DNA of 60,268 nt, the filler included, from Sphacelaria rigidula (lineage: Eukaryota), in assembly GCA_964200075.2 (NCBI GenBank). It is 8 parts of 8 records of this genome, joined end to end, with 100 filler letters (N's around TTAATTAATTAA, not from the genome) between each part and the next. Parts side by side here need not be neighbours in the genome. Positions count along the whole stretch, not along the records: positions 1 to 7,446 come from CAXNAA020014879.1; 7 more parts are not named here. One strand, written 5' to 3'. Position 1 is the stretch's first letter, and each line of letters opens with the position of its first letter. Both the position numbers and the translations under genes were made by a program. The notes under the pieces are model-generated. The model made no database searches, was not told the origin of the DNA, and saw only the letters and a program-made list of their open reading frames with translations. Below, in pieces: positions 1 through 36,973 of the stretch.

Positions 1-1222
1 ATCAGGCGCTGTATGGCCATTTTTTTCGTGACCCTTTTAGCTGTTTTTTTGGGGGGGGGGCTGTCGTAGAAAGTGTTCCAAATCATTATCTACTATCGTG
101 GTGTAAACTGTTCGCTCTCCATCGCTTTTACTTTTACTTTCCCTTGCTTGGTTGTTTCTGCGTTGGTCTTTGTCTATTTGCTTCGGGCCGCTATGTCCCC
201 TCCGCCTCCCCTTCTGAGCACTTTCCTGTTCCTGCCTCTCTTCCCCTCCGTTTACCCGTGGACTACATCCTAGGTTTGTAGCTATGCATACTCTCCATCC
301 TATTCTTCTAACCCATGCCGATACCTTACTTGTTCATCCTTTCCCACTCCTTGCTCGCGCTCTGTTTTAGCGTGACTCGGAGGTGTTCTCCCTCCCTTTT
401 TACTTTTCCTCTTGCCCAAGAGTGTGGTCCAACTCTATTGCATTTCATTTTACACTCTATTCTTGTCATATCGCTACGAAGTCCGAATACCAGCACTACT
501 AGTACTTTACCCGTCCACTCGTTACTTCTCCGTCCGCCCTTCCTTACCGTCTCTCTCTCGATCCCCTTCGAGAGAATCTCCAGCTTAATCGTTTCGAACG
601 TATTGGCGAAATGTAGTGAACATACTGCGACATCCTAATACTAGCACTTGTCAGGGGTCTGGTGCCGTCTATTTTTTTTTCTGGCTCACCGACACTAAAG
701 AATGCCTCCAACACGGGCTCGTAGCCTGAAGCCAAGTTCAACACCTTTGACACAAGTACCCCACGTTTACGCCAAGCGATCTTCATGGTAGACCATCCAG
801 ACGTCCCACGATCGTATCTTCTATCTTGCCCCGCTGCTGCACTGGTTACTTTCCTCCAGGGAGGTCATTTTCAACGTGTAAGGTTCAAGGACGGCTTGCA
901 TATCACATGGTCTTACTCACATCGGGATGTCCCGTACATCACTTTTTCCACTCCGTGTGTACGCTTCATCATTTGTCGCTACTCCACTAAAGCTTCCGAG
1001 TAGACCTTCGCTGCCGGAAGCTTGACCAACGATGCCCCCACACTTTGTACCAGCTTCTATCCTTCAAGATCTCAAGAAGTCCATGTACCGCTTGGTGCTT
1101 CTTCTCGTAGGTCATGTGGTCGGTCGTTGGTAAGGTGATTGTTTCATGAGTGCAGGAGGTCTTGACGTTTATGTCATGCATTATCCACCCGTTCCCTTCA
1201 TTAGGCGTCTTTTGCACCTAAT

Positions 1223-1615
1223 AACAGTGGATTATCAAAAATGGGGTTGAGAAAAAAAACGAGGTTCAACTCAAAAGCCGTGCTTTCCTAGACCTAAATT
1301 CATGACTTTTATATCGACGATCTCGTCCCTCCCGACCTCCCTAAAACTATTTCGGGGGATTTCTAGCATTCCGTTCCCCCACAGGGTATGTGCGAATCAC
1401 ATTTTTGCCTCGATTTCGGATAAAAAAATCGTGCTTTCGCACATACCCTTTGAGGGAACGGAAGGCTAGAAATCCCCCGGAATAGTTTAAGGAGATCGGG
1501 AGGGATGAGGTCGTCCATATGAAAGTAATTTGTTATGAATTTAGGTCAGGGAGAGCGCGGCTTTTGAGTTGAGCCTCATTTTTTTTCCAACCCCCACTTT
1601 CGAGAACCCACTGTT
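1223..1615. mobile_element. Foldback MITE (~393 bp, nearly fully palindromic) with a 4-bp TAAT TSD
   Basis: Termini AACAGTGG...CCACTGTT. The left half is the imperfect reverse complement of the right half (e.g. gggtatgtgcgaa/ttcgcacataccc, ctcaaaagccg/cggcttttgag). TAAT lies at 1219-1222 and 1616-1619. Confidence 0.85.
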
Positions 1616-1661
1616 TAATGTCGAAAATTTCGGGAAAATGGCTGACCAGACTCCCACCGCC

Positions 1662-1920
1662 TGTAGACTCTAGCCATCATTGTTACCTAAGGTTAGGGGC
1701 ATTTGTAGGTGGAGTTGCGGGTCTGATTGCCGGACTCTGTGATGGTGACCTCCATGACGAGTAGGCCCGATTTTGCCACTCTGTTGGGGAGAGGCTATGG
1801 TCTTGTTCTTCTGTACTATGCTGAGGGTTAATACATGAATACCTAAAGCTGCTGAAGTCCATGTGCCCGTGATGGAAGGAGTTCACATGGCAATCTGATC
1901 TTGAGTGACAGAAGTCTACA
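1662..1920 (+). repeat. 5' LTR of element 1
   Basis: TG...CA with terminal inverted TGTAGA/TCTACA; direct repeat of 5515-5773. Confidence 0.95.
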
Positions 1921-2402
1921 ATGAACGTTCATTAAGACCGCTGATAGTGGTAGGTCCGCTGAAAGCAGCTGACACTTCAAGATAGGGAAGTCTGCAGGCC
2001 TGATCAGTTTGCAGCAAACAAGACCAACTCAAGGAGTTGGGGAAGTAGAGCCGAGGAGTTCTGAGGCAGTGCTAGGGCGGGCTGTGGTATCGCTCGTGCC
2101 TGAGGTGCGGGCGATCGATCGACAGCTGGCGAGCCCAAGATCGTTCTAGAAAAGCGGCGAAATTACTGCCTTTTGGAGCCAGCGAGAGTTGCTTGTTCCA
2201 CGCTTGGCCAGGTACGGCCAGGAAGAGGAGTCTAAGGACTTCAAACACGTGGTGAGACCTGCGTGAGGAAGAGGCGCTGTGGCCGTTGTCGTTGTAAGGT
2301 GGTACAGCGCGTCTCGGTATAAGGAAAGAGTTGTTGTTCCTGTGAGAGGGAGGCGACTTCGTTTTTAAAAAAGGCGTGTGGAGTGCTGTACTGCTGACCG
2401 AA

Positions 2403-4231
2403 ATGTACGAGGTGCAGGAGTATGTCGCGGTGGACGGCCATGTTGTTCGTGCGCCGCAACAATATGTTGTCATCGATGGTCGCGCTGTCCGTGTACGATT
2501 TCTGGATCTGCCCTACTACGGTCGCAAGTTCTCAAGTGAAAAATCTGCTCAGTTTCTGCGGAAATATGAGGACTACCTTCGTGAGGTGCACGCAACAAAC
2601 GAGCGTCAAGCACGCGGGCACGTTGTTGAAGAGCCAGCGGTCTCTGACCTCATGCCCGCACATATCGAGAACTGTCTATGTGACACATTTTTGGATGGCG
2701 CGAATTGCTCTTTGCGCTGCGCAAGCATGCATCTTATGCATCGCCGAATGTGGTGCAATATAGTGTCAAGGTCGGCGGCGGTAGAGACAGGCACGACAGT
2801 GCACCCGCCGAACGTGCAGTAGGTGCTGCGCGTTTGAAACGACGATACAGGGCAGCTGCATGCCCTGTGAAAGCCGAGAAACATGTGTCTGCCCGAGGGG
2901 ACAGGCACGACAGTGCACCCGCCGAACGTGCAGTAGGTGCTGCGCGTTTGAAACCACGATGCAAGGCAGATGCTTGCACTGTGAAAGCCGAGAAGCATGT
3001 GTCTGCCCGAGGGGATAGGCGCGATAGTGGACCCGCTGAACGTGCAGTCAGTAGGGCGCGTCTTAAACCACGATACAGGGCAGGTATTTCCATTGTGAGG
3101 AGCGGGAAGGAGACACATAACGTGTCTGTTAAAGCGGGTATGCATGAGAGCGCGCAGGCCGACAGTTCCACGGTAAGCATTGGTTTGGATGCTGCTGGTA
3201 TTGCTGCCGGAGAGGGCGAATATGTCACGCAGCTCGAGTAGACTGCAGGCAGCTTAGCTGCCTCTGTTGCCGCTCAGGAGTGCGCTGAGTAGAAGGTGGT
3301 GGCCGAAGCGGGAATATTTGATCCAGCCGCTGCTGCCGCTGCTGCCGCTGCTGCCGCTGCTGTCGGAAGCGCGAAGCCAATTTGCTCCGATGAGCTAGCG
3401 CTGAGAGGCAAAGGTCCAGGTTGCTTGTGGCCGCCGGACCAGCGCGTGACTGGGGACACACCTTGCATGCTCACCGCTGCAAGGGGGTGTTATCTTCGTG
3501 ATGAGAGTGAGCAGAGCAAGCTTGGGGCTCGCGATGCTCAGGGTGAATCTATCTGCGCCAGTGACATGGCGAGAGATCATTTAGATGATTCGCAGGGGTG
3601 TCTGCTGGAAGGACAGGTGGATGCCGGGTTGGCGGAATTGCCGCCGGAGCAGCGCGTAGCCGTGGACACGCCTTGTATGATCGAAACAATAGGGGCGTGT
3701 GACCCGCGTGAAGCGGGTTCGCAGAGCGAGCTGCAAGCTCGTGATGCTGTTAGCGATCACAATTCTGACGACGACGACGAGCGTTGCGTGGTGTTGGGGT
3801 GGTCGTGTGCACTGCTGTTTACACGGACAGCTTTGGCGTATTTGGCGGCGATGGCGTAGGAGTCTCCACTGTTTTGCCGCGGGGTGTTTGAGGAGGATAG
3901 TGTGCCATCAGGGGGGGTTGCTGTTCGGGACTGTGTAGCTGTTCCCGTTCCGCCTCTGGTTTCCTCTGTAAAACTGACTGAAACACAGGTGTTCAGTACT
4001 GCCCAAGTATCTGTGGAGGCAGATGATCTGTCGCGTTGGTTTGGCGGTGCGAATACACCGTTGAGAGGCGTGTTGAGCTACACCATGTTGGTGCCAGGTG
4101 TAGCGAGACCGAAGGTGCAAGGTGGGAGTGTCCGAGAGGAAAAGCTGCTCTACGCTGTGCACGGGGTTGTGGTTCGAGTGCTGCTGTTTCTCTGGAGCGG
4201 GCTGGAGGACTACAAAGAAGGCATTTCGTGA
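2403..4231 (+). pseudogene. Degenerate gag-like reading frame of element 1 with low-complexity/repeat extension
   Basis: LDLPYYGRKFSSEKSAQFLRKYEDYLREVHATN aligns by eye with DLRPPQYGDRYSESAPRTFHTRYLGYKNCVEHAN of the gag at 8214. It continues through frameshift and stops into ORFs 2705-3241, 3296-3859 and 3884-4231. Confidence 0.6.
2786..3128 (+). repeat. Three tandem 114-bp (38-codon) repeats
   Basis: Units start at 2786, 2900 and 3014 and translate as DRHDSAPAERAVGAARLK...KAEKHVSARG. Confidence 0.9.
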
Positions 4232-5514
4232 GGTGTTTGCTGTTGTGGTGAGCGCCGAGTTGGGTACTGATGTTGAGGAGCAAGTGCTGTGGGGATTTGA
4301 GTGCTTGTTGAGAATGAGGAAACACATTATGACTTGTATTCGCGGATCGTTTTGAGAACGATTGCAGCTTGTCATTGTGTGGTTTGTGGTCATGTTTGCG
4401 CATGAAACATGGTTGTTGAGCGAGTACGATCGTATCGCGTGTGCAGGGTAAAACTCTGGCGTACACGTGTATATTTGGCATGTGTGTGTGGTGCTGATGT
4501 GGTTGGCACGGAAGATGCATGGTGTTTGCTGCGAGGAAGGTGGCATTGCATGTGCTGGGTGAAGTATTGACATGCATGTGCGGATTCTCATATGGTGAGT
4601 GGAAATTTGGTAGGCATGTGCGAATTTCTGCTCGAATGGTACTGATGTAAATGGTATCTGGTGACGACCTAGGGTGGGGCAGTTTTCAATATACTGCTGT
4701 ATACTAAATAAAGAGAAGCTCGTATAACCTTGTTCGCGTGGGAACACAGTCGAACCATATTTGGGCGTTTTGCACGTACTGACTGCAGGATATATGGATT
4801 GCTGCTGTTAGCGTAAAAATGAGCTGAAATAAACGAAATGCGTAGGCCCGTCGCCGTTGTTGGATTGGTATACATGACTTGGAAAGCGGTGTGAGCCATG
4901 GCTTTCCTTTGATTGTCTTTATGAAATGAAGGCAAGTTGAAGCATTGAAGCTTTGACGGCGGGGAGGCATCCGATGCATACGTTTTTTACGGGGTCGTAG
5001 AAGCAAGAGGCCAGGTGCGTTTTAGACGTGTTGGGGTGCATATTTCCTTCTCGCGTGAGGATGATGCATCATTTGGCTGTTGAACTCCGTTGCGCAGGTG
5101 TTGAACGTACAAAGAGTGAATTTTGTATGCTGAGAAGTACCTTGTCTCGGATGAGAGGGGTGATGAGTCACGAATGCTCTGGAATTTAACGTTTGCTGAC
5201 ATTTCCGGTTTCGAGCCGATGACGAGTCAAAAAACTTGTTTTGGGCGAAGATTTGAGAATCTAGCGCTAGCTATCGCTTTGTAACTCGAAGTTGTGCAAG
5301 TAGCGTGATTGCATGATCATAATGAACGATATATTGTTGGGATCTCTTGCGAGTTGTTCGGAAGTAGGGCTAGCTTGTATGAAGCTGTTGTCGAAAGCAG
5401 CGTAAGAGGTTGCTAATCTTTGCGGAAACGACGGTACTATCAGGCACCAATGGTGTCTGAGTTTGTCAAGCTCTGATGTATCTACTTGTTGGCAGTAGAG
5501 AGCTTTGGGGGTGC

Positions 5515-5773
5515 TGTAGACTCTAGCCATCATTGTTACCTAAGGTTAGGGGCATTTGTAGGTGGAGTTGCGGGTCTGATTGCCGGACTCTGTGATGGTG
5601 ACCTCCATGACGAGTAGGCCTGATTTTGCCACTCTGTTGGGGAGAGGCTATGGTCTTGTTCTCCTGTACTATGCTGAGGGTTAATACATAAATAACTAAA
5701 GCTGCTGAAGTCCATGTGCCTGTGATGGAAGGAGTTCACATGGCAATCTGATCTTGAGTGACAGAAGTCTACA
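5515..5773 (+). repeat. 3' LTR of element 1
   Basis: Direct repeat of 1662-1920, preceded by TTTGGGGGTGC and followed by the TSD CGCC. Confidence 0.95.
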
Positions 5774-5929
5774 CGCCCAAGAGAAACCGGTAAGGTTTTA
5801 CGGGTATCTCACTACGAGACCCCAACCTGCATATAAATTTAACATGGAGGGGGTGATGACCCTACCCTATCCGTACTTCACACGCGGCCATTCGGCTACC
5901 CCCCAAAATACTCTGTTCCGGTCAACTTT

Positions 5930-6191
5930 TCGAGCCTCCAGAGGAATTGAACGCGTCCAGAGGGTGCGCGGCCCTCCAGAGGGGTGGGATCAAACGCCTC
6001 CAGAGGCTTGTTTTTCCTCTGGAGGGCCGCGCATCCTCCGGAGGAATTTGGAAGATGCGCGGCCCTCCAGAGCACCATCTTTTTGGTCACTCTCGAGTGA
6101 TTCAGACCTCAAAAGTCACTGGAGCATCAGATGCCCTCCAGAAGATTCGTTTATGATCGCACCTGGGAATGAAATACCCTCTAGAGGGTAT
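5930..6191. repeat. Cluster of quasi-palindromic CCTCCAGAGG motifs in both orientations
   Basis: About eight copies of CCTCCAGAG(G)/CCTCTGGAGG, several within GCGCGGCCCTCCAGAG, ending in the palindrome ATACCCTCTAGAGGGTAT. Confidence 0.65.
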
Positions 6192-7446
6192 TAGAGAGTT
6201 TCAGACCCCCCCCCCCCCAGAACTCAGGAATAAGCGAAAAACGTATGGATTCTTTACGCTTAAACGCCAGGTTTGTTTTTAATTTTTTCACCACGTAGGT
6301 GTGGACGGTGGGCAACTTTTCAGGGTTTGGTATTTTCCGTTCCGAATGCCACGTGGTCGGTGTCATGAGTTGAAGAGGTAACCGTCGCGCCGTGCTGTTC
6401 TGCGTTTGTACCCTGCGCTCGCCAATGCGGTGCTACCTGTACAGCGCGGAAGAGCATGTACCGAACCGTGCTACAATAAGTTGAATGTTTAATCCCAGGA
6501 AAAAGAGGAGTCATAGATGGGTGTTTCGGACAGCCTGTCACGGATCGGTGGTAAAGGCCTAGAGGAAAAGAGGTGCCAGTCTGTGGGCACCTGAGCACCA
6601 TCAGGCTCATGTACATTTGGGTACCATCGATTCGTACCGAGTTCGCGGTACGCATATCGTGCTCAGCAGCGAAAAGGAGGGATGCTACGGTAGGGGTGCA
6701 CAAATATTTTCTTAATTTAGAATTGTTGGGAGCCCTCTATCTCATCTAAAACACGTGTCATTAAATATGTGAGAGTACACCAGGAACCCTATCCCAATGT
6801 CCTGGGAATATCCCGAATGAATTTGCAAACGGGGATGTCCTGACCCATATTCTTGTGCATCTAGAATTTTTAGGAGCCCCTGAACCAGACAAGATTTCGC
6901 GCAAAAAGTGCAACCCTACCGTAGCATTGCTCACAGGCTTCGGGTTGTCACGCAGGTGCTTAAGCACATCGGCTGCATGCGATTCAGGCTTACTTTAGAA
7001 GAAGACCAGAGACACCTCTGATAATGCAGTCCTAGAGATGCGCAGATCCTTCTTGTATTATCGGCGAACAGGCTGATTGCTGCTGTGCTAGTTGAGATCA
7101 GTCGTAGAAGCTCTGTGAGCACATCAAGGTAGACAGACGGGTACCAAGCATGATAAGGTGTGACACACAGATACTAGTCGACTGGAAAACGACGAGTCAA
7201 TATGGAACATCCCCCTAGCCTTATCTATAAGGCTAAACAACAATACTCAAGGCCTGGAAGGGCCGGAACAAGACAAAGCCTGTGCATCATACGCCAGAAG
7301 ATAAAACGAGAAAAACCAACAAAACTACAGTGTTGGGGAAAACTCGTTGCAGATCTAATGGATAGGTAAACCCTGTAAAAACAGCCAATCATCTATGTTG
7401 AGGATGGTGCTTTTGATTGAGGATGAGAACCCGGAGGATTAAAATC

Positions 7447-7546
7447 NNNNNNNNNNNNNNNNNNNNNNNNNNNNNNNNNNNNNNNNNNNNTTAATTAATT
7501 AANNNNNNNNNNNNNNNNNNNNNNNNNNNNNNNNNNNNNNNNNNNN
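7447..7546. other. Artificial linker (N44-TTAATTAATTAA-N44). Also at 14993-15092, 22539-22638, 30085-30184, 37631-37730, 45177-45276 and 52723-52822
   Basis: Identical 100-nt spacers with six-frame stops at an exact 7,546-nt period; 8x7446+7x100=60268. Confidence 0.99.
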
Positions 7547-7652: not shown

Positions 7653-7904
7653 TGTGACGAAAATACGCCGTTACGTTGAGTTGGTAGTGATGATATGGAT
7701 AATGACCGTAGGTAGTGATGGCCTGGATAATGACCGGGGACACTAGGTTGATGCGCTGGCGTGTCTAGGTGGGTGGGTGCCTTGGAAGATCACTCCTGGA
7801 AAATGAAAATGTTGTCAAGGCTGACAACTGAAACTGAGGCCAGTAAGACTGGGGAGTCCCTCAACAGCTGTGATTCAACAGTGCTTCTACTGGCTGGTGT
7901 CACA
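7653..7904 (+). repeat. 5' LTR of Gypsy element 2
   Basis: Direct repeat of 13300-13547; TG...CA. Confidence 0.95.
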
Positions 7905-8213
7905 ATGTCGATATTAGTGCTAGTGCTAGTATTAGTACTGCTAGAAATCTGCTGAGAAAGATTTCGGCGGAGTGAGTCTGGCAGCTGGGGACAACCTGAC
8001 ATCACGGACTCATGACGAGGGTTCAAGTTAGTGGTGGCTGCAGAAAGGCGGCTGGCCTGTGATTGATCAAGACTGAAGACTTGCTGAAGCTGCGTGCAGC
8101 GGGAGTTTGGAGGCTCCTACGACTGTGTGGTGCGGCGACGAAGCAAGGAAAGTGCAATTCGCGAAGGTCCGCTGGCCTGCAGAGGTGGCAGGTAGCCGGT
8201 TGCAGTTACAGTT

Positions 8214-9563: not shown

Positions 9564-10942
9564 GTGGTTCGGTCTGTGTTGGATTCTGGCGCCCATTTCA
9601 CTAGTCTGCTGGTTCAGATGAGATGCTGGAGCGACAACTCCCAGGTGTGCCGCTGCGCATCCTGTTTTCGCTCGGGGCGCGGCAGGCAGTCACTGCGTGA
9701 GGTCAGCATGTTTCAGTCACGGAGCGTACCGTTCCGTTGCAGCTAGCCTTCAAGACTGCTTGGGCGCTGGCGCCGTTGCCTCCGATCTCGTTTGCGGTTA
9801 TGCCAGGGTCGGATGACCTTGTTCTTCTGGGGCTGCCGACGCTACAGGATCTAGGAGTCGACTCGTATGAGCGGTTGAAGGACTCCATCAAGACGCGGAT
9901 GTCTCCACCTGGTCCGCATGTGGGGACGCCCATCTTTTGGGGCAGTCGTCGCGTGAGCTTGTCGGTGGATGCTTTTCAGGAAGCTGGAGGGCAGGTGATC
10001 GAGGAGCGGGATGCGGCGGTGGAACACTTAGTAGAGCGCGGCCCGGATATGTTTATGGACCCGGCGGAAGAGGCGTCCGCTCGGAAGGTCGCGCTGGAGG
10101 AGAGCGTGACGGATGCTGTGGCGAAAGGCCTCAGCGTCCCCAAAGCGGAACGCCTGCGCGGTATCTTGCATCGGCGCGTCAACGCGTTTCGTCGTCCGCT
10201 GCGGGGTGATCCCCCTGCGCGCGTGGAGTCTATGCGTATTCACCTGAATCCTGGGGCATCCGGGTGAAGGCAAAGCCGCGGCGGTACGATCCGGTGAAGT
10301 CGAGCTGGTTGGCGTCGTGCGTGGTGGCTCTTTTGGCGCTTGGGTTGGTAGTCCGGAACATCCAAGTGGTGTGATCAAGTCCGGCGATGGCGGTTCCCGA
10401 GAAAGACTCGTTTCGCCTGGTAAGCGACTACAAGGCTGTAAATGATGAGGTTGAGAAGTCGCCGGGTGTGATGCCCAATCAAGAGTCGGACATGCGTGAT
10501 CTCTTGAGTGCTCGTTTTTTTGGCAAGTTGGACCTCCTCCAAGGTTATCGGCAGATGCCGTTGGCGGAAGAGGCGCAGGAGATTACCATAATCACGACCC
10601 CGTTAGGCTTGTTTACACCGAAGCGAGTACCGCAAGGCGTGTTGAATGCCACGGCATATTTTCAAGGTATCCTGACAGAGCTGCTCGTCAGCTTGAAATG
10701 CAAGATATGGGTGGATGATGTTTTTTTTCGCGGATACGGAAGACAAACTTTTAGACACGCTTAATGCTACCCTGGCCCGTTTAGAGAACGTTGGTTTGTT
10801 TGCGGCGGCGCACAAATGCACTCTCTTCGCGAGTGAACTCGTATGGTGTGGGGAAGTGTACTGACACGGACGCGTATCTCATGACCCTGTCAGATTTCAA
10901 GGCTCGTCTGACATACGGCGCCCGGAGACGGCCGCAGAACTC
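9564..10942 (+). pseudogene. pol: Gypsy pol: aspartic protease and reverse transcriptase, frameshifted
   Basis: Protease motif VLDSGAHFTS. RT motifs FRLVSDYKAVN, FGKLDLLQGYRQMPL, RVPQGVLNATAYFQ and KIWVDDV. Split over several frames. Confidence 0.92.
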
Positions 10943-13225
10943 ATGCGATTCCTGCAGGCCGCGAATTGGCTGCGTACCTCATTGCCGCGTATGGCAGAAA
11001 CCGTAGCTCCCTTGCGTGTTTTCCCCGGAAACCTCATGGCTGGTGCTGCGAGGCGGACGAATCGTGTTGCTAAAAACCGCGCTATCCCGCCTGCATCTTG
11101 GACGGAGGGTAGCTTGCAGGCGAGAGCGGCAGCGAAGGATCTGGTGGTTCACGCCGTGACGCTGTTCCATCCTCGTCCTGATCGTCAGGTGCTAATGTTT
11201 CCGGATGCACCTGAGTGTCATTGGGGTAGTTTTGTCACGCAGGTACTTACAGCGGAAATGCAACGACGCCTGCCAGTTGAGGATATGACGCATGGATCGC
11301 TGGCTTTCCTCAGTGGTAATTTGAGGGGTTCGCGGTTGCGTTGGGCCACAATTGATAGGGAAGGTTTTGCTATCGTAAGCACTTTTCGTCGTTTGGAGCA
11401 TTTTTTGTGGGATAGCGTGCACATTTTCACGGATCACCGGAATCTCGTGTATATTTTCAACCCGGAAGCGTGCGTTACGTCTGTGTCGAAAGCATTGGCA
11501 CAACGTTTGGAGGGTTGGAAAGCTGTTCTTGGCCAGTGCCGGTACAAGATTTGTCATATTTCGGATGAGCGTAACGCGTGGGGTGACTTGCTGTCGTGCT
11601 GGGTAAATATTCCTACTATGCCTACGCGCGCTGTGGCTGTGTATGGTCCGTGTGAACCTGATGACTCGATGCCGTCCAAATCCGTTGTCCGCCAAGCGCA
11701 ACGAGAAGATCTTGGGGCCGAAGATGCGGATGTGCAATCTTTCGAGTCGGACGTTGGTATTACTATCTTGGACAATGAAGGTCTGTTTCGTGTGCATGTG
11801 CGTGGCCGAAACGTTTTGTGGATTCCAAGTTCTGACAAGCAGTTGCAGGTATGTCTGATGATTTGCGCGCACATGCGCAACGCCGGGCATCGTGATGTGG
11901 CTGCGACGCTCGTGCGCTTGCATACGTTGTGTGTCTGGCAGGGGATAGAAACTCATGTGCGCGAATGCCTTCGCCAGCGTTTTCACTGTGCTGACTCGAG
12001 GGCGGGCGATGTTTTTCCCCACCCGCTCGGCGAAACGGTCCATGGGACCGAGCCGAATGAAGTCGTTCATTTTGACTTCTCGTACGTGGGCGAGAGTGGC
12101 CCGCTAGCTTCCCAAGGTTTGTCGGAGGATGCTGGGTTTCGATACATTTTGGTAATCATAGATGATTTGAACAACTTTGTGGCTCTAGAACCAGTAGCAG
12201 TGCGTACTGCTGAATCGACCGCTGCATCTTTGCTGAATTGGTGCAAAACTTTGGGGATGCCGCGTGTGTGGGTGAACGATACCGCCACGCATTTCAAGAA
12301 TGCGATCTTGGCCCGATTGCGAGAGGCTTTGCGCGTTGATGACCAGTTTGCGGTAGCGTATTCTCCGGGGTCTAACGGTACGTGCGAACGCATCGTAAAG
12401 GAAGTAGTTCGTGCTCTTCGCTCTATTCTTCTCGAGCAGCGTAGAGGGGGTTTCGAGTGGGTGGACGTGTTGCCGGCGGTGCAATGGGCGCTTAATACAG
12501 CGTATCGTCGTCGTTACGATAGTACGCCGTACCACGTGATGTTTGGTCGTGCCCCTCGGACGTCTTTCTCGGTGCTGCCATCTTCGTCGGCGGGAAAATG
12601 GAAGTGTGATGTTTTGGACGACGCTCAAAACAAGAGTGCATTGCAAGGAGTCTTGGACTTGCAAGAACGTCACCACGTTCAAGTGCAAGAACGTGTTGCC
12701 GCTGAACGTGCGCGTAGACGTGAGGGATCCTTGTCGGGGCTGGAATTGCCGAATTTTGAGGTAGGCGACTATGTCCTGTATGCACGCGTGCGTCGTCCGG
12801 GTGCTACGCCCAAGTTGATGATGAATTGGACTAGTCCATGGAGAGTGGTCGGTGCTCACCACCCACACGTGTTTGAGATTCAGAACATTTTTTCGAGTCG
12901 TGTTCAGACCGCCCACATAGCTTGTTTGCGTTTTTATGCAGACTCGCAGCTTAATTTTACGGCTGACGTTAAGGACGTGTTCCAGCATGCTTTCAATCAT
13001 GGGCAATTTCAGATGGCTGGTATGGTCCGAGTGGTAGAAGCAGATGATCGTTCGTTGATCGTGTTGGCCGACTGTGTTGGTTTCGGAGTTAACGAGCGTA
13101 CGTGGGAGCTATTCCAATATATTTTTGAGGCCGCTCCAGAATTACTTACGAAAGGCTTGCGTAAATTGCGCGTGACTCGTGCCGTTGCTGCTCGCATTAC
13201 GAGTGAGTTTGGTATTCAATTGTGA
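10943..13225 (+). CDS. pol: Gypsy pol C-terminal part: RNase H, integrase and chromodomain-like tail
   Basis: RNase H motifs MFPDA..CHWG, WATIDREGFAIV and IFTDHRNL. Integrase HHCC remnant H...GH and core VVHFDF, DTATHFKN, SNGTCER. Tail LIVLADCVGFGVNERTWE is chromodomain-like. Confidence 0.92.
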   Translation: MRFLQAANWLRTSLPRMAETVAPLRVFPGNLMAGAARRTNRVAKNRAIPPASWTEGSLQARAAAKDLVVHAVTLFHPRPDRQVLMFPDAPECHWGSFVTQVLTAEMQRRLPVEDMTHGSLAFLSGNLRGSRLRWATIDREGFAIVSTFRRLEHFLWDSVHIFTDHRNLVYIFNPEACVTSVSKALAQRLEGWKAVLGQCRYKICHISDERNAWGDLLSCWVNIPTMPTRAVAVYGPCEPDDSMPSKSVVRQAQREDLGAEDADVQSFESDVGITILDNEGLFRVHVRGRNVLWIPSSDKQLQVCLMICAHMRNAGHRDVAATLVRLHTLCVWQGIETHVRECLRQRFHCADSRAGDVFPHPLGETVHGTEPNEVVHFDFSYVGESGPLASQGLSEDAGFRYILVIIDDLNNFVALEPVAVRTAESTAASLLNWCKTLGMPRVWVNDTATHFKNAILARLREALRVDDQFAVAYSPGSNGTCERIVKEVVRALRSILLEQRRGGFEWVDVLPAVQWALNTAYRRRYDSTPYHVMFGRAPRTSFSVLPSSSAGKWKCDVLDDAQNKSALQGVLDLQERHHVQVQERVAAERARRREGSLSGLELPNFEVGDYVLYARVRRPGATPKLMMNWTSPWRVVGAHHPHVFEIQNIFSSRVQTAHIACLRFYADSQLNFTADVKDVFQHAFNHGQFQMAGMVRVVEADDRSLIVLADCVGFGVNERTWELFQYIFEAAPELLTKGLRKLRVTRAVAARITSEFGIQL

Positions 13226-13299
13226 CTTACTCATCGTTTTGGCGTTTTCTATGTGTCAAGCTTGTTGATCGACTTTCGTGCAACGCGCTTTGGGGGTGC

Positions 13300-13547
13300 T
13301 GTGACGAGAATACGCCGTTACGTTGAGTTAGTAGTGATGATATGGATAATGACCGTTGGTAGTGATGACCTGGATAATGACCGGGGACACTGAGTTGATG
13401 CGCTGGCGTGTCTAGGTGGGTGCCTTGGAAGGTCACTCCTGGATAATGAGAATGTTATCAAGGCTGACAGTTGAAACTGACGCCAGTGAGACTGGGGAGT
13501 CCCTCAACAGCAGTGATCCAACAGTGCTTCCACTGGCTGGCGTCACA
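13300..13547 (+). repeat. 3' LTR of Gypsy element 2
   Basis: Direct repeat of 7653-7904, preceded by TTTGGGGGTGC. Confidence 0.95.
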
Positions 13548-14300
13548 AGGGTTTGGCATCGTCTAATTTCCACTCATGATACGTGGGAAAGGCTCAGGGA
13601 GCCTCGTGACGATTTCCCTTATATCTGCTGTAGAAAAACTCAGATCATCCTCAAACTTAGCAGTACCGTAGGAACTGATTCCCTAAAGGGAAGGATTGTG
13701 TTCTTGGCACAAGTTCAGAGTTTCTTCGTTCTGTACCGGCTTCCGGGGGTCCCAGTACAAAGACCCCCGGAGGGCAGTACAGAATGACAAAAAAACAAAA
13801 CAAAATCATGCGTCCCGGGATAGCCCAAGGAACACATGAGCAAAGTTTGGTGGAAAAACTCGAAAGTCTCATTCAATTTTCCTGTCTTGACGTAAAATTC
13901 ATCCAAAAAAGATGTTTTCATACTAAAACCAAGTAGTTGGGAGTTTGCACGTTTTAAGCTCACATCCTCGCACAAACGCTTGAACCTTTACTCAGTTCTA
14001 AGGAGTTAGACGCTGAAACTTTACACAAGTGTGGTATGAATCATTACGTACGCTTCGATCAACGAGGTTTTTTTAATTCTTGGATGTTTTACCGTTTCAC
14101 GGCGGTCCGACTGGATCGAAGTTTCCTCGAAAAAACTTAGACCCCGGAAAAACGGTGAAAAAAGTAAAAAAGTAAAAAAAATCAACTCGACCCAGAAAAA
14201 TTGCGTGATCACCCGTAAAAAATCTGTGCGGACTTTCAGTGTCGAACTCTTTACAACGGCGTGAAGTTTTGCTGATGAGTGTTTTTTGGGTATTTTCCTC
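13548..14300. mobile_element. Non-coding repeat family with internal direct/inverted modules (putative non-autonomous DNA transposon)
   Basis: Homologous to 33190-33487 plus 34842-35650 (e.g. tgtagaaaaactcagatc, taccggcttccggg, caaagtttggtgga, ggagttaga). Confidence 0.75.
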
Positions 14301-14727: not shown

Positions 14728-15092
14728 GCAACTCTGGCTAGGTGCTCCCAACAAAATGCGGTGTACACGCGTGTCGATGACGATATCACCAGAGAGAGAA
14801 GCAACGACAGAGAGGAAGCTCCTCGCCCATGCCCTTGGTGTGTCCCCGCTCGGTGATTACCAAACTCTCGAGAGACTGGTATCCTTGATCTTATCAGCAT
14901 GTGCCATTTTTTTCATATGCCAGAGCATCGACGTGCGGAGCAATTCCGTGTCTCTTCTCGCCTGTTGCCATCGCGAACATCGATTTCTTTCTNNNNNNNN
15001 NNNNNNNNNNNNNNNNNNNNNNNNNNNNNNNNNNNNTTAATTAATTAANNNNNNNNNNNNNNNNNNNNNNNNNNNNNNNNNNNNNNNNNNNN

Positions 15093-15879: not shown

Positions 15880-16345
15880 TGTTGCAATTTTAGACAGGAC
15901 AGTCTATGTTCTTTGTGTGTGATTGAAATTGCCGCTAAACGATACTGTACAGCATAACCGGCACGACTTGAATGTTATTTGTTACGGTTCAGGAGAAACT
16001 GTAAACCATGTATGTGTCGTTTCACTGTACCTTTTTCATGGTGATATAGGGTACGTATTTAACATCTTTTGGTTTACGTACAGCATTGCTTTTTGTCCAG
16101 AGAGTGGAAAGTATTGAGGCTCGTTCTCGCTCGCCCCTCGGTTCTCACTCTCTCCAGCAACCCACTTTTGCTTCCACAGCTCTCTCTTGCAAAAGAGGCT
16201 GTTTGATAGTTTAGGCCAGAAGCGCCGAACTACACTATCTTGATTTTATTTCACTGGCTCCTCGCAAGTAGCTTTACCGCTATAGTGCAAGCCTCTGTTT
16301 ACCTGTCCAGTGAGACAGTGCTATGCCAGCGAATAATGTCCAACA
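15880..16345 (+). repeat. 5' LTR of Copia element
   Basis: Direct repeat of 21951-22416 with roughly two dozen substitutions. Confidence 0.95.
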
Positions 16346-16486
16346 AGTTTTGAGCCTTCGATTCGTGACCACATAGCTCAACAGGCTATCAGCCTCGGTT
16401 CGCGACCACACAGACCGACAGGTGCCTTCGATTCGCGACCACCTAGGTCTTCAGGTCATCAGCCTTTGAGTCAAGACTACATCGGT
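16341..16486 (+). repeat. Four degenerate ~37-bp tandem units, each LTR terminus (CAACA) + PBS-like motif
   Basis: caacaagttttgagccttcgattcgtgaccac / caacaggctatcagcctcggttcgcgaccac / cgacaggtgccttcgattcgcgaccac / cttcaggtcatcagcctttgagtcaagactac. Confidence 0.8.
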
Positions 16487-16612
16487 CAGCACGAGCGAGG
16501 AGGTGTCATATCAAGGTCGCCACAGCAGCGACATTCAAGAGTCCAAGAATCCTTATCTTTCCAATAGATCTGCAGGTGTGAAGAGAATAGTTTTATTAGT
16601 AACGCGAGGCAG

Positions 16613-19600
16613 ATGAATATGTCGGGAGAGCCATCTGTAACTCAGCTCATCAAGAGCATCAACAAGTTCGACGGTATAAAGTTCGTCGAGTGGATGCGCT
16701 CCACGCGCGCTATCATTTCTTTTACTCATCCGGGGATTGCGGATACCCTTAACGGGGTCGAACGCCCCGCGGAATTAAAAGAAGATTTTTCAGAGGTAGA
16801 TCTTCCACAACCAGCTGCCACAAGAACTACCCCTGCTAAAACTCGTTCTCAAACCACCCGCCAGCAGTTGTCCGTTCGACCGCATTTCTCATCGGTGGAA
16901 GCAACCGCTGGGGACGAGACGATTGCAGCGGTGGGTGGGACTGGACCTACCGGAGAAGACCATTTGTTTTTACGAGAATCTCGTTCTCCAAGCGTGGTGT
17001 CACATGAAAGGCGGGTTTCTCACACGCGTGAGATAGGAATTTGGGACCGATGCAATCAACAATTGTTCCACGTCTTGTATCTGTCTACAACTGGTCCTGC
17101 AGCGAGTTATTTGTTGCGTTTCCAGCCGAAGGGTTCAGAGGGACCAAACGGCGAACGTGCATGGGAGGCTTTGATTTCCAAGCACCAAAATTATTCGAAG
17201 CAGAGAATCAGGATCTTGATGAGAGAACTTAACAGCGTCACTATTTCACCGGGGCGAGACCCTGATACTTTCTTGAGCAAAGCGTATCAGCTTCGGGACG
17301 AACTGGACAACGTTGGCGAGGCCATTTCCGAAGAAAGGCTGACTGACAGAGTGACCGAAGGTTTAACAAGCGAGTATGATCTACCGAGTACAATGCGGAG
17401 CGTGATTCAGATCGCAGTATTCAGAGCATCGAAACAACAATGCGAATATGTATGCTAATCGCATGGCGCGGAGATATATCTCCGGGAAATCGCATGCGCG
17501 ATTCATCACTGCTGGTGACATCACTGTCAAAATCTTTGAATCAACCCCAGAAATTCCGTGGAAACTGCTACACCGGCGGGAGACCAGGACATCAGGCAAA
17601 AGACTGTCGCTCCCAACTGCAGTCAAATAATGGGAGCAGGCCTGTAAAATGGTGCAGTTTCCATCACACTGACAAGCATGACTATACCGAGTGTAGATCT
17701 CAACAGAACCGCAGGAATGCAGCCGACAACGCTGGAAACAACAACAATAATCATCATCGCAGAAATCCCCGCCATCAAAATAACAACCGTGACAACGGCA
17801 GCAACAACAGTAGGAGCTACCACAACAGCAACATCGGCAGCAACAACTCCAACGGACATCAACGCCAAGCCAACACAGCCGTCGCCGATCCAGCTACTAC
17901 AGCCGTACCATCGAACAACAACGGCCTGGAAACTTCTTCATCAACAGCTGCGACAGTGATAGATACATGCTCACCACCAAACGGTATGGGATTTACTTTT
18001 CTTTCTGGTTCACATGTCACTGATACACCCGATCCAATTTATTTTCAGTTGACAGTGGATAGCGGCAGCACTGGGCATTTTTTGGATCATCAGTTACTAC
18101 CCGATATCGAACGTGAAATGGTCGAGCTGGTCACACTCGATCCACCGATGACTATTTTAACAATGGGACGCCATCTACTACATGGTACAGCAAAATGAGT
18201 TTTGAACACCGTGGTCACTGACTCTGAGGGGTACCAACGTTCTGTATGGCTCCCAGCCGTAATTGTCCCAGGTTTGGGGAAGCATCTGTTCTCCCCTGTG
18301 CAAGCTCTTGCTGAGGGGGCTTCGACTATATTTTCTCACGAGTCCCATATCGACCTCGGAAAGTTTAAAGTGCCAATCAACAGTGACAACAACGGAGCGT
18401 GACAGTACATCAGCGTGAGAGTTTCTTGGAAACCGGGTATTATTAATAACAGCTCAGCATTTACAGCTTCAATTATATCAGGAGAATCTATGGGCATAGG
18501 GTCAGTCATTGTTGCAGAAGCCATTCACCACGACATGCCGAAAAGTTCAGCAGCCATGTCTGCCACAGCGGGAGCAGAACCGACAGCTTTGACTACCACG
18601 ACAGGAGCAGACATTTGGCATAGGCGACTTGGGCATCCTACGGAGCAGGTCATGCGCCGTCTACTGAATACTCCTGAATCAGGTGTGAACTTTGAGGGTT
18701 CACTGCCACCTCGTGTAACGTGCAAGCTTAATAAAAGTGTACAGCAGGAGCACCCAAAGGCCGTGGACTCCACGAACATTTCGGAACGACTGCAATTGGT
18801 CAGCACTGACCTCACAGGGCCGATTACGCCTATGGCGCAGGGCGGCTACCGCTACATGGCAAAATTTACGGATCACTTCTCGCGCTTCAAGGTAGTCTAC
18901 TTCATCAAAACGAAGGATGAGACCCTAACTACGCTCTGCAGGTTCATCCAAGATCTGGCTATTCCTTTAGGACTCCATGTACACCGTCTGCGGTCAGACC
19001 GTGGGGGTGAATACATCGCGTACTATTTTAAGAAGTACTGCAAGACTACGGGCATCCGCCAAGAATTCACCAGTCCATATACTCCTCAGCAGAATGGCAT
19101 CAGTGAAAGAGACGGGCGGAGCATCTTGAACGTTACTCGTTGTCTCCTGAATGAAGCGAATTTGCCGAAATTTCTTCGGGGAGAAATTGCTGCAACTGTG
19201 GTCATTTTAATCAATCGCCTACCGCACACGAGCATCGGCGGCGATACACCATTTTTCCGAATGTTTCTCAAGCAACCGAAGCTATCATCCCTGCGGACAA
19301 TCGGCTCGAGGGCGTTTGTGCACAGGGAACGTCATCACAGTAAGTTAGAAGAAAAGGCTTGGGAAGGAGTGCTAGTAGGGTATGATTCCGATAGTCCATC
19401 GTACCGCATTTACAACCGCTACTCGGGAAATATACCCAGCTCCAGAAACGTCGCTTTCATCGAACAAGTAACAGGAGCTCCTTGCAGTGATGAAGATTTT
19501 CGACTTTGGATATCCAGGAACCCGACGTATCTGCAGTTGATCAGGAACAACACGACGACATCAACAACTTCAACATGAATATTTACGATGGTTATAGCTC

Positions 19601-21393
19601 AGCTAGAGGACAACTCATCGACTACAGGGCCGCCTATCGCCCAAAGGAGGTTGCGTTCAGCCGGTGGTCCCAATCATCATCCTTCTGGACCAGTTAACAA
19701 ACGGCAAGCCAGGGAGCCAAAGCGACCAGCTTTCATGTCTTCTGCGGGTCAACATGCTGCAGCAACATTGGAATGGTATGTCAGTACATACGTACTGTTG
19801 GAGTTGAACAGGTGGCACCAACCGCGTCAATTACCGTACCCACCAACTATCGACAGGCATCGAGCTCACCATACTCGAAGAAGTGGAAAGCAGCCATGCT
19901 GGACGAACTTCAAAGTATCAAGAATCATGATGTAGCCGATATCATCCCGGCCAGCTCTATTCCCAGCAACAACAACATCATCGGTACAAGGTGAGTCTTT
20001 AAGGTCAAAGCCGACGTGCGTTTTAAAGCCCGGTTGGTGGTTCAAGGTTGGTCTCAGAGGCATGGGCTCGACTGCGGGAGTACTTTCGCTCCAGTTTGCA
20101 GGTTGGAAAGTCAGCGATTGTTACGGGCAATTGCTACTGCGAAAAATTGGCCTATTTGAGCCCTCGACGTACAAAGTGCTTTCTTGAACGGCAAGCTACA
20201 GGAAACAGTATTCTGTAGACAATCGCCAGGCTTCGAGACGTTCGACCCAGCGACAGGAGGACCACGAGTGATGCGTCTTAAGCGCGCTCTACGGACTGCG
20301 TCAGAGCCCAAACGTGTGGAACGTTACAATGGATACGGAGTTACGGGAAATGGGCTGTTCAGCCACAGCAAGGGACCTACACGAAAGGATCCCATGAGGG
20401 ATATGTGATGCTTACTCTGTATGTAGATGATGTCTTGATGACAGGACCGTCAATAAGTATACTGCAACAGGTTCAGGATGCACTGAAGTCAAGATTCTCC
20501 ATCTCCGAGCTAGGGCCAGTTTTTCTTATTCTTGGTAAAGAGGTCATCAGGGATGAAGCGCGAGGAACTCTCAAGTTGTCACAGCATAGGTAGGAAGAAT
20601 CAATGCTCAAGAAATTCGACATGGAGTCATCCAATCCAGTTCACACACCGGGGACACCAACATAACTCATCGACGACGCGCCCGAAGATACCTTCCCGGA
20701 ACCGGCAGAGAAAACCAATCACCAAGCGATGGTTGGGAGTCTCATCTTCCTCGCACAGAGCACACGATTTGACATCGCATTTAGTGTCTCTCAGGTAGCA
20801 CGTCACATGAGCAGCTCGAGTCACCAAAACTCAGTAGCAGTTAAACGGATATTTCGGTACCTGAAGGGAAAACCCGATCTTCCGCTAACGTACTCAACCT
20901 CCGATAAGAATCTGCTTTAAAACGGATTTTGTGATGCTAGCTATGGTAATGCCGGACTTCAGGGGAAAATGCGATCAACAGCGGGGACTTTTTTTTTTCT
21001 ATCTAACGGGCTAGTTCATCTCACTTCGAGCTTACAACGTATAACAGCCACTTCAACGACGGAAGCCGAGTTAATTGCCCTTTCAAAATGCGGCAAATTC
21101 GGAACGTATTTCTCCCCAATCTGATACGAAAGCTTGGATGGTCATCTATTATGCCCGCGACTATCTACTCGGATTCACAAGGCGCACTTCATCTGTCTTC
21201 AAACGCCAACTTCAGCACCAGCTCGAAACACCTGGCGATACGATTCTTTAATTTAAAATATATTATTCGAGCCGGACAAGTAAGGATACACTATGTACGA
21301 TCTTTGGAACAATTAGCGGATCGTCTCACCAAAAGCTGTGATAGAATCGTACATCAGAGACTGCTGAAGGTCATAACCGAATTTGGGAGATAA
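16613..21393 (+). pseudogene. Copia gag-pol polyprotein with multiple frameshifts and stops
   Basis: UBN2-like gag, knuckle CYTGGRPGHQAKDC, protease LTVDSGSTGHF, IWHRRLGH, integrase STDLTGP/RSDRGGEY/PQQNGISER, RT LYVDDVL and RNase H SKHLAIRFF...QLADRLTK. Confidence 0.95.
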
Positions 21394-21425
21394 CGGATAC
21401 TAATCTGGCAGGATATTTTCTTCAG

Positions 21426-21592
21426 CATCATGGTCAACGCTCAACTTCGATCATCATCGTCAACGCTCAACCACGATCATCATCGTCAACGTTCAACTTC
21501 GATCACCGTCGTCAACGCTCAACTTCGATCATCATCGTTAACGCTAAACTTCGATCATCATCGTTAACGCTAAACTTCGATCATCATCGTCA
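21426..21592 (+). repeat. 26-bp minisatellite (~6.4 copies) in Copia 3' UTR
   Basis: Unit CATCATCGTCAACGCTCAACTTCGAT. Confidence 0.92.
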
Positions 21593-21950
21593 CCGGAGTT
21601 GGAGGAACTTGATTTTGTTTGTTGTTTCGGTTAAAAAATGTTGGCATCTGTAAGTTATCGTTGATTGCTACATCGCCATATGATGACCAATTCGCGGTTT
21701 GATGTTACCGCACAATTGTTTTTGTTTGCTTATTTATTTTATAGCTCACGAAAATCTGATGCACATGCAAATACATGCGCATGCGAGTGGAGATTTGTAA
21801 CAGTGACTAGCTTCTTTTCTCAATTGGTGTTGGTTAAGTCGTTTTTCGACACAGTACAGATACATGAGTTGTACAACAGTACGAGTGCGTATCTCGACGA
21901 TTTAAGGTACACCATCTTTCTTTGATAGCGACATGTCAATCACGGGGGAG

Positions 21951-22416
21951 TGTTGCAATTTTAGACAGGACAGTCTATGTTCTTTGTGTGTGATTGAAAT
22001 CGCCGCTAAACGATACTGTACAGCATAACCGGCACGACTTGAATGTTATTTGTTACGGTTCAGGTGAAACTGTAAACCATGTATGTGTCGTTTCACTGTA
22101 CCTTTTTCATGGTAATATAGGGTACGTATTTAACATCTTTTGGTTCACGTACAGCTTTACGTTTCGTCCAGAGAGTGGAAAGTATTGAGATTCGCTCTCG
22201 CTCGCCCCGCGCTTCTCACGCTCCCCAGCAACCCAGTTTTGCTTCCGCAGCTCTCTCTCGCAAAAGAGGCTGTTTGATAGTTTAGGCCAGAAGCGCCGAA
22301 CTACACTATCTTGATTTTATTTCACTGGCTCCTCGCAAGTAGCTTTACCGCTATAATGCAAGCCTCTGCTTCACTGTCCAGTGAGACAGTGCTATGCCAG
22401 CGAATAATTTCCAACA
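21951..22416 (+). repeat. 3' LTR of Copia element
   Basis: Preceded by PPT, followed by TSD CGTGA. Confidence 0.95.
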
Positions 22417-24060
22417 CGTGATACTGCTCCAAAAATAAATACTTCACATTTATCCAAAGACATACTAACAGCCGATTTTATATTTTGGGGTTCATACAAA
22501 ATATGGGGTTGAAGTGGCAATATCTCTCTTGAACGGGANNNNNNNNNNNNNNNNNNNNNNNNNNNNNNNNNNNNNNNNNNNNTTAATTAATTAANNNNNN
22601 NNNNNNNNNNNNNNNNNNNNNNNNNNNNNNNNNNNNNNATTCATTCACTGATTGACCGCTTTTCACTCTCAATCGTATCATCTACTCTCAATCTCACGAA
22701 AACACTGTTTATAGTATGTCGGCTATGTCTCTTTTTATCAGAGTACCTCTGTGCTTTTTACTTGCTGCCTCAATTTTGGTGGAATCAGTACACAAATTAA
22801 TCACCCCCTCGCTTCCGTCGCCAGATGTGAACTTCAACGCTGCAGACAGCTGAGCGAGCGCTTGTCCACCTTGCGGGAGAGGGGGGACCGCCGGTACTGT
22901 GCCTGTCCAAACCGTACTCAGCTCGAGCAGTTGTCCACACTAGCATCTAATATAATGAAGTTGCAATATAAGCAGGATGACACTGAAGCGAGTAGAACAC
23001 TGTACACGGTAAGATAAAATCTTACTTCTAATAAAAAAAAAAATCACGTTATGCTCGACACCCCCACTCTCTGCGCGAAATCCAAAACTTCTGTACTAAA
23101 ATCGACATAATATAAAAACGCGCGAATTCACCACACCAGTCCATCACGGTCTGAGACAACAGGAACAGAATTTTGCATGCTTCGTCTATTATCCCAACTT
23201 TCCTAGACCAAATAGCCCATGTAGGGGTACACCCGGTTTTGATTTATTCGATACACTTACTGGAACTTAGCGTTCCCCTATAACCCCCCTGAGACCAGCA
23301 CCTCCAAGTGTGGGGGATATAGCCTAGTGGATCACGGGGATGAGCGGGGTAGAGGCGGACTAGGGTGAAAAATGACGCGTGACGAGAGAGGGGCAGGCAG
23401 TCCGTACGCGCTCGTCCTCTCCACGGAGTATGATCAAAGTCGGGTGACGAAACGGAGGACGGACGATCAGGGGTTGTAAACCAATCGTCCCAAAAGAACA
23501 TTCGCAGAAACATGCTGAGGGACGATGTCTCGCCGGATGTCCGTGTGAGTGTTTATGGCAGGGATTCTTCCTGGTACTAGCTCTGACCTGAGAACACCGA
23601 CGGAAAAATAATTTTGGAATGTCGACTGTAGGGGTCTTGGTTCTCCCTTTATCGTTACGGGAACCCTCAGTCAATGCAACATTCGCTCATCTAAAAACGT
23701 AGTTCGAGACGCCGTACCACTGTAGTTCATGGAGGCGCCCAATCTTGGCATCAACCAATGAAAGCTGAACCGACGGATACGTTGGATGCTGGCATGATAA
23801 CTACCAAGCATTATGCTCAAACACATCCGAGAAAACGAATAACTACCCTTGCGGTGTATTTTCCTCCACGAACTATCGTTGCCGCAGCTCTATAAGGAAC
23901 CGGTATACGGCAGAACGCTTGTTTTCGAACGAACTTTCGAAAATCCACGAGTCGGAGGAGCGCCTCATGTCCCCTCCCGGCGCCGCTGCTGCTGTCTCCA
24001 CTCGCCGAACTCAGCCGCCATACGTTTCAACTTGATGAATGAGTATGAGTACGAAGCCAA

Positions 24061-30084: not shown

Positions 30085-30564
30085 NNNNNNNNNNNNNNNN
30101 NNNNNNNNNNNNNNNNNNNNNNNNNNNNTTAATTAATTAANNNNNNNNNNNNNNNNNNNNNNNNNNNNNNNNNNNNNNNNNNNNAAAGCCAAAGGCCGCC
30201 CCCCCCCCTCCCCCTACCCGCGGTCGAGAATGAGGAAAATGCCAAATCCATTGGGGAAAAACCTTACTCTTCCTATTTCTCCACTAGTATACGGAATTGA
30301 ACGATCATTCAGATATCTCCAGGGTGGCCTCAACGTGAGCAGCCCAAAACCGAGGAGGTTTGGTATGTCAGTTGTTCTTGTGGCGATCGGGGAGCAATTT
30401 TGCCGGCTGGAAAATGACTTTGGGGTCGCGGTGATCACTGGATAATGAATGCCGAGCCCCGCTGGCTTTTGCAAGACCGGTTGTTAATACCGACCTGGCA
30501 CTATCGCAGTGATACGGCCGCCATGTTGAAGAGGGCGGTGTACGAACAGTTCTGCACTGCCACT

Positions 30565-36625: not shown

Positions 36626-36973
36626 GTGTGTGGATGTGTTGTCGTCCCATCTATTCTGGACGCCGGGCTACACCTTTCGGTATACGTGGGCGCACCAGCC
36701 GAGGTCTCATAGGAGGAAGGTTAACACATTTTTTTCTTTTCATGCCCCATCTCCCTTCTGCGGCGCTTGCCTTTCCTTTTTACCACGAGAGGGGTTCAGC
36801 AGTCCCCTTCCCTCGTGGACCGTTACGTCGAATTTGGTGTACACCCGACATGGATGCTCTCCATTGTTGGGCATGGTGTGAGAAAGAAATTCCAGATCGC
36901 TCCGAGAAATGAACCCACGACCCAACCGTCGGTAGGTTTCGAGGGTACCGACTGAGCCGCCGGGGCGACCGGC
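36626..36973 (-). mobile_element. tRNA-derived SINE family 1, copy B
   Basis: Homologous to 30565-30930 with A/B-box head. Confidence 0.85.

Follow-up and report, generated by a model that had tools for sequence, protein, structure and literature searches.

A self-complementary junction site at the primer-binding position of an LTR element in Sphacelaria rigidula and of chromovirus-type Gypsy relatives

The closest described counterpart of the site considered here is found in the GalEa Copia elements of Pezizomycotina, which carry a Conserved Hairpin Site and no tRNA primer-binding site (PBS) (2017, BMC Genomics 18:410; PMC5445492). There, a 9-nt sequence follows the 5' LTR and becomes palindromic once the final A of the LTR is counted. 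This sequence is nearly fixed, two variants being present in 85% of the families, and a second, inverse-complementary copy (CHSeq2) located 12-41 bp downstream leads to a hairpin; the same text states that the site could be fitted to no known priming model (PMC5445492). Among Gypsy elements, the Tf1/sushi type is defined by a PBS that can pair with the opening bases of the transcript, which lie in the LTR (PMC4600332, PMC2864245). Self-priming has also been predicted for the Tcn1 and TAR lineages (PMC6317226), whereas both a tRNA site and a site for self-priming are reported to be missing from SM-Tcn1 (PMC2864245).

The site described here lies in a stretch of 60,268 nucleotides from Sphacelaria rigidula (GCA_964200075.2), hereafter the window, in which the PBS position of an LTR element (element 1) is occupied by the palindrome AATGAACGTTCATT (Table 1). 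This junction palindrome is closest to the GalEa site, a known but unexplained kind of site, and it generalises to Gypsy relatives. As in GalEa, there is no tRNA PBS, the palindrome includes the final A of the LTR, and no complement of the Tf1 kind exists in U5 or the LTR. GalEa is a fungal Copia group, whereas the elements studied here are of the chromovirus-type Gypsy kind, with a brown-alga-like host and oomycete-like relatives; and in place of the near-fixed 9 nt reported for GalEa, these junctions show 10-14 nt, mostly of distinct sequence (17 of 22), with no partner copy. The preliminary description of the locus missed two points: nearly the same motif had been published for GalEa (PMC5445492), and element 1, being devoid of pol, is non-autonomous. 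In the literature covered, most of it outside subscription journals, no palindromic PBS or junction palindrome was found for Gypsy elements.

Like Tf1/sushi elements, and like Tcn1 and Tj1 for which this is predicted, the elements belong to a chromodomain-bearing Gypsy lineage without a tRNA primer, whose primer is thought to come from its own RNA, and the priming proposed below would likewise need a cut in an RNA/RNA duplex. Unlike Tf1/sushi, they possess no LTR complement, the site being complementary only to itself. A non-TGG site adjoining the LTR also marks the Copia elements that use half-tRNAs as primers (Osser, Bianca and others; PMC6317226). Their sites have a conserved sequence that corresponds to an internal portion of a single tRNA, whereas those described here are self-complementary and variable.

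Table 1. Coordinates of elements 1 and 2 within the window
Feature	Coordinates	Strand	Remarks
Element 1, 5' TSD copy CGCC	1658..1661	+	identical 4 bases at 5774-5777
Element 1, 5' LTR	1662..1920	+	259 bp, TG..CA, 8-nt terminal inverted repeat; 98% identity to 5515-5773
Element 1, junction palindrome AATGAACGTTCATT	1920..1933	+	PBS position; first A is the final LTR base
Element 1, internal region	1921..5514	+	without RT, RNase H or integrase
Element 1, polypurine-tract-like site	5497..5514	+	directly 5' of the 3' LTR
Element 1, 3' LTR	5515..5773	+	repeat pair with the 5' LTR
Element 1, 3' TSD copy CGCC	5774..5777	+	4-bp target-site duplication
Element 2, 5' LTR	7653..7904	+	repeats 7653-7905 / 13300-13548, 91-95% identical
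Element 2, near-palindrome AATGTCGATATT	7904..7915	+	12 nt, one G.T pair; starts with the final LTR A
Element 2, polypurine-tract-like site	13285..13299	+	core same as in element 1
Element 2, 3' LTR	13300..13547	+	repeat pair

Element 1 displays the features expected of an LTR retrotransposon, namely paired TG..CA LTRs, a CGCC duplication and a purine-rich tract. Its borders derive from direct repeats at 1661-1920 and 5514-5773 (98% identical), within which the TG..CA ends set the LTRs as listed in Table 1. The LTR pair and the CGCC duplication uphold the preliminary description in letting the palindrome begin with the terminal A of the 5' LTR. No Pfam family was found in the internal region (11 plus-strand ORFs), and tblastn of the 11 ORFs of element 2, a second LTR element of the window, returned zero similarity to it. 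Since both pol domains and tblastn similarity are absent from 1921-5514, element 1 is, judged from its sequence, a 4.1-kb non-autonomous LTR element. It does not show the order of RT, RNase H and integrase, with a C-terminal chromodomain, that characterises autonomous Ty3/Gypsy elements of the chromovirus type, and its tie to this group consists only of the polypurine core, the style of the LTR ends and the junction palindrome that it has in common with them. Elements 1 and 2 have in common an identical stretch of 14 nt that covers the polypurine core and runs into the LTR start; exact matches to it occur only at 5504-5517 and 13289-13302.

Several additional repeats accompany element 1. Three 114-bp tandem repeats are located inside it, at 2786-3127. 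Just 5' of it, a foldback (inverted-repeat) element at about 1300-1590 reaches the top abundance in the runs compared (X1 depth of up to 2.2 million); it yields sub-threshold miRNA-precursor-like Rfam matches at 1364-1468 and is probably a MITE-like repeat. A 20-bp perfect palindrome is present at 6173-6192, about 400 bp 3' of the element, with sub-threshold hairpin matches nearby (5950-6090). In runs X1 and X3, contigs pass from leader position 2009 through one additional G into the LTR start at 1662; the resulting arrangement (LTR, 89 nt of leader, LTR again) corresponds to a deletion or tandem variant of the element 1 family.

The sequence AATGAACGTTCATT equals its own reverse complement, confirming the perfect 14-bp palindrome that had been claimed at the 5' LTR end. 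By itself, such a palindrome is unremarkable in the window, where perfect palindromes of at least 14 bp other than (TA)n number 6, while 200 block shuffles gave 3.3 on average; it is therefore the position, rather than the palindrome per se, that matters and needs explaining. For any given position, a palindrome start exactly at the LTR end amounts to a coincidence of about 1 in 10^4, and related elements show it again. Variation within the family was followed on contigs of four runs, placed on 1400-2780 with a likeness of at least 80%, which reveal a highly repeated family. The runs that contain the stretch carry algal labels, none is recorded as RNA, and the four used here are only presumed to be RNA. 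Diverged copies bridge the junction: among the records listed, five span 1920-1933, with 12-36 differences each. Loss of the palindrome from most intact copies had been named in the preliminary description as an observation that would speak against its reading; the family appears to keep the site, as among the variants listed none falls at 1884-1936, those listed including 1876, 1883, 1937, 1945, 1948, 1954 and 1956. Rare variants may still occur among 173 substitution rows and 26 indel rows beyond those listed. The self-duplex of the element 1 palindrome has an energy of -16.5 kcal/mol.

No TGG-initial sequence adjoins the 5' LTR of element 1. The nearest TGG, at 1948-1950, lies 27 nt downstream, and the majority of copies in the family have C in place of its T (X1 depth 6230.7 of 8993.2), so that it does not represent a conserved PBS. 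The earlier statement that a TGG-type PBS is missing stands, and the junction site is, to all appearance, no canonical tRNA 3'-end PBS. In addition, no tRNA gene was detected in the window, and an Rfam search of 1200-6200 returned nothing at the LTR or the palindrome, only sub-threshold miRNA-like hairpins on the flanking foldback repeats. Regarding complementarity of the Tf1 type, no exact complement of at least 7 nt was found between the element 1 LTR and the 30 nt from 1920, as the preliminary description had maintained when it set the site apart from Tf1/sushi elements; shuffled LTRs give a complement of that length in 41 of 200 trials. Likewise, in none of the five elements with defined LTRs could a stretch of at least 7 nt within the LTR pair with the 30 nt that begin at its end, and no second copy of the palindrome (up to 3 mismatches) was found within element 1. 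Within the elements, the junction site has no complement other than itself, and it is also the only pairing partner common to all of them.

Element 2 represents the chromovirus-type Gypsy element of the window. Its pol contains RVT_1 at 10375-10761, followed by RNase H and integrase within 10865-13225, which is the Gypsy order. The pol ORF (P0001) shares 78% identity with a protein from Scytosiphon promiscuus, a brown alga; a chromodomain (PF00385) is annotated in the relatives P0005, P0010 and P0013, while P0001 itself did not score. Around element 2, no target duplication could be made out. Its 3' flank (13548-13848) recurs at 33193-33496, 19.6 kb off in the window, with 77-81% identity, indicating that the element sits within another repeat family. 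The window itself consists of 7446-base blocks joined, every 7546 bases, by 100-base linkers (44 N, TTAATTAATTAA, 44 N) that introduce a stop in all frames (7447-7546, 14993-15092, 22539-22638, 30085-30184, 37631-37730, 45177-45276 and 52723-52822), and continuity across blocks is therefore not to be assumed.

Other repeats of the window include a Copia-type element (element 3, 15880-22419) with 469-bp LTRs at 15880-16348 and 21951-22419 (95% identical), gag, integrase and SH3 domains, and 26-bp tandem repeats at 21400-21633. It is also without a TGG site after the LTR; its post-LTR bases are non-palindromic and might form a half-tRNA-type site. A further repeat pair, at 30578-30930 and 36635-36973, has the look of LTRs and is actually a tRNA-derived SINE-like repeat. 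Such tRNA-like stretches are present at 43479-43553 and 46038-46112 and, on the reverse strand, at 30844-30930 and 36887-36973, with T-arm-like motifs of the GGTTCGAATCC type; ARAGORN called none of these four a tRNA.

Relatives were collected through their pol proteins. A search of metagenome and viral contigs with a single pol protein returned no related loci. An alignment of P0001 with eight homologues (A1) gave no match in viral contigs and retrieved 80 metagenome loci, at 22-45% identity. Self-comparison uncovered repeat pairs in 11 loci, three of which were judged true internal LTR pairs (L016, L044 and L055), the other eight being set aside as contig-end overlaps from collapsed LTRs or as otherwise non-LTR. 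In all three, the 5' LTR end coincides with, or lies at most 1 nt from, a perfect palindrome of 10-14 bp. Scanning of all loci, together with the windows expected from the pol match, added 16 metagenome loci with a junction palindrome, which in them follows the bases of an LTR-end motif (CTAC-A or GCAC-A in most cases). For L001, L003, L008, L011 and L019, a terminal inverted repeat and a preceding purine tract gave independent evidence of the LTR start. The distance from the palindrome to the start of a gag or gag-pol ORF, which reaches up to 1781 codons, is 12-47 nt in 12 loci, leaving no space for another PBS before gag in most autonomous relatives.

A protein-similarity scan of prokaryotic genome records provided five further contigs (L081-L085), of which only L083 (42% identity) has enough upstream DNA. 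It presents a different perfect 14-bp palindrome after a GTCACA LTR end, together with the polypurine core of elements 1 and 2 and the TGTG..GTCACA LTR ends of element 2. The five contigs are filed under bacterial MAGs (Robiginitomaculum, Planctomycetota, Rickettsiales, Bacteroidetes and Myxococcota); they encode a eukaryotic chromovirus pol, 40-80% identical to that of element 2, and most likely represent algal or protist contamination of the bins. The named relatives of one palindrome-bearing element are mostly oomycete proteins, plus Plasmodiophora. The domain order in the relatives is that of Gypsy, which sets them apart from the Copia-type GalEa clade.

Elements 1 and 2, 19 metagenome loci and L083 constitute the 22 junction elements. 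The palindrome overlaps the terminal A or CA of the LTR in 17 of 21 elements and starts 1-2 nt after the CA in the other four (offsets determined by eye, L083 being left out). A second palindrome in L001, at 5740, lies within coding sequence and was discarded as a chance occurrence, the one at 2730 adjoining the LTR end being kept. The AT-rich palindrome of L070, which has no preceding CA, and the ambiguous L056 and L013 stand outside the 22. No AC-preceded palindrome was found in the scanned windows of nine loci judged long enough for a junction (L010, L013, L023, L034, L037, L048, L066, L070 and L077). In the pol tree, palindrome-bearing loci are found on both sides of the midpoint and spread over the whole tree. 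Five of the loci without a palindrome are placed in it, and four of them sit beside positives (L010 with L044, L037 and L066 in the L055/L040 clade, and L013 next to L002/L003), L023 being the exception; longer LTRs or cut contigs are thus likely to explain the absence.

The 22 elements harbour 17 distinct junction palindromes, of 10 nt (7 elements), 12 nt (10) or 14 nt (5), meaning that the pairing is conserved and the sequence is not. Each of the five inner pairs is represented by 3-4 Watson-Crick pair types, with the proviso that these pairs are perfect by selection, because most of the junctions were found by palindrome search. The sixth pair, which is outside this selection, is Watson-Crick in 15 of the 22, and farther out pairing drops to chance level. 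Pairs were counted by script on the unshifted matrix, as MAFFT displaced two of the 22 short junction sequences. Covarying palindromes in related Gypsy elements, which the preliminary description had proposed to look for, are therefore present.

Two further counts bear on the position of the palindromes. Overall, palindromes of at least 10 bp occur near the chance rate (258 in 230 kb, from 59 non-redundant loci). If only those of at least 10 bp with an initial A and an AC directly before it are counted, the 59 loci have 19 on the pol strand versus 3 on the opposite strand. Moreover, a palindrome of at least 10 bp is present in the 130 nt upstream of a bounded gag start in 7 of 8 loci, versus 38 of 289 control windows; this comparison picks no palindromes beforehand, and one of the seven, that of L070, is AT-rich and doubtful.

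The junction palindrome is very probably a selected cis-acting replication signal at the PBS position. As a more tentative proposal, to which we give a little less than even weight, it would act as a functional stand-in for the PBS by means of RNA-RNA priming, in a large chromovirus-type Ty3/Gypsy group and in non-autonomous derivatives such as element 1. In such a scheme, the palindrome would pair two genomic RNAs packaged together, or else a full-length RNA with a short one made up of R, U5 and the palindrome, and a cut at or within the RNA duplex would free a 3' OH. The Tf1 enzyme reportedly cuts its own RNA/RNA duplex. The freed end would then be extended along the U5 and R of the partner to generate minus-strand strong-stop DNA; as the palindrome takes in the terminal LTR base, the C of the closing CA would be where synthesis begins.

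The main competitor of this RNA-RNA priming proposal is that the palindrome serves only as a dimerisation or packaging signal, minus-strand synthesis being primed by something else, which we consider unlikely without being negligible. Like the dimer initiation site (DIS) of retroviruses, it is a short palindrome that would allow two genomic RNAs to pair; a dimer site would be expected to stay self-complementary while its sequence changes freely, and the GalEa authors themselves raise the comparison (PMC5445492). Against this, retroviral DIS palindromes are displayed in hairpin loops and exist in addition to a PBS, according to the same text, whereas here the palindrome lies exactly where the PBS must be, next to U5 and with the last LTR base included, and no PBS is seen. 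Moreover, leaders as short as 12-47 nt could not accommodate a separate PBS, and the sequence 3' of the palindrome is not conserved between elements. The monomer folds display no loop context common to the elements.

Still less likely is that the palindrome is a by-product, recreated each time the element replicates, through fold-back or a template switch at the U5 boundary, and hence perfect without any selection for pairing. Such a process would account for the perfection of 21 of the 22 palindromes, old elements included (the LTRs of L055 are 87% identical), and the sole imperfect one belongs to element 2, whose LTRs are 91-95% identical. However, we know of no step in the cycle of LTR elements that generates such a repeat, and the length is held at 10-14 nt and anchored on the terminal A. 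Even this reading would still imply an unusual priming chemistry.

A third, improbable alternative is a snap-back in cis, in which the palindrome folds within one RNA and its cut 3' end primes on its own U5. The preliminary description had suggested either this or a duplex of two RNAs, and the duplex turns out to be the better of the two, priming itself being a proposal in both cases. The snap-back would also account for the inclusion of the last LTR base in the palindrome. However, with a minimal loop of 4 nt, a 10-nt palindrome (7 of the 22) would leave a stem of 3 bp and a 14-nt one a stem of 5 bp, and the monomers fold into marginal hairpins or none. Considering these stems of only 3-5 bp and self-duplex energies that span -4.4 (the weakest, L006) to -21 kcal/mol across elements, pairing between two RNAs is favoured.

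The three remaining explanations are very improbable. On one hand, a Conserved Hairpin Site of the GalEa type would have the palindrome pair with a second, inverse-complementary copy 12-41 nt downstream; the junction palindrome with its final LTR A is the same as in GalEa (PMC5445492), but none of 18 elements contains a complementary repeat of at least 7 nt within 150 nt on either side, L003 alone offering a single downstream 6-mer. On the other hand, to an equally small degree, part of a host tRNA or another host RNA could act as primer, or the palindromes could be due to pure chance. Half-tRNA priming is known in some Copia lineages (PMC6317226), but sequences that differ between elements, 17 among 22, cannot match one host RNA, no site is TGG-initial, and a perfect 14-nt palindrome would probably fit a tRNA arm poorly; chance, in turn, is excluded by the strand and gag-start comparisons given above. 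Least probable of all is self-priming of the Tf1/sushi type, in which the transcript 5' end inside the LTR would pair with the site, as despite the chromovirus-like nature of both groups and the self-priming predicted for the related Tcn1 clade (PMC6317226), neither the LTR complements nor, in element 1, the second palindrome copy that were searched for came to light.

The authors of the GalEa and SM-Tcn1 studies left the priming of LTR elements without a tRNA PBS unexplained (PMC5445492, PMC2864245). A covarying, clade-wide junction palindrome in Gypsy elements converts what was a single oddity into a testable rule, for which natural compensatory variants are at hand. It is conceivable, although we hold this more loosely than the proposal for the group studied here, that a widespread set of LTR elements primes by an undescribed mechanism, in which two co-packaged genomic RNAs pair through a palindrome next to U5 and one of them is cut to serve as primer. 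Such a set would take in stramenopile and other protist Gypsy elements of the chromovirus type and perhaps also, independently, GalEa Copia. Common annotation tools search for tRNA-type PBSs, so palindrome-bearing elements may be under-called or flagged as having no PBS, and the motif would provide a simple diagnostic for them. Finally, PMC7472051 describes 3' tRNA fragments that silence elements by targeting the PBS; if the proposed mechanism is true, the elements considered here would be independent of host tRNAs and would hence escape silencing based on such fragments.
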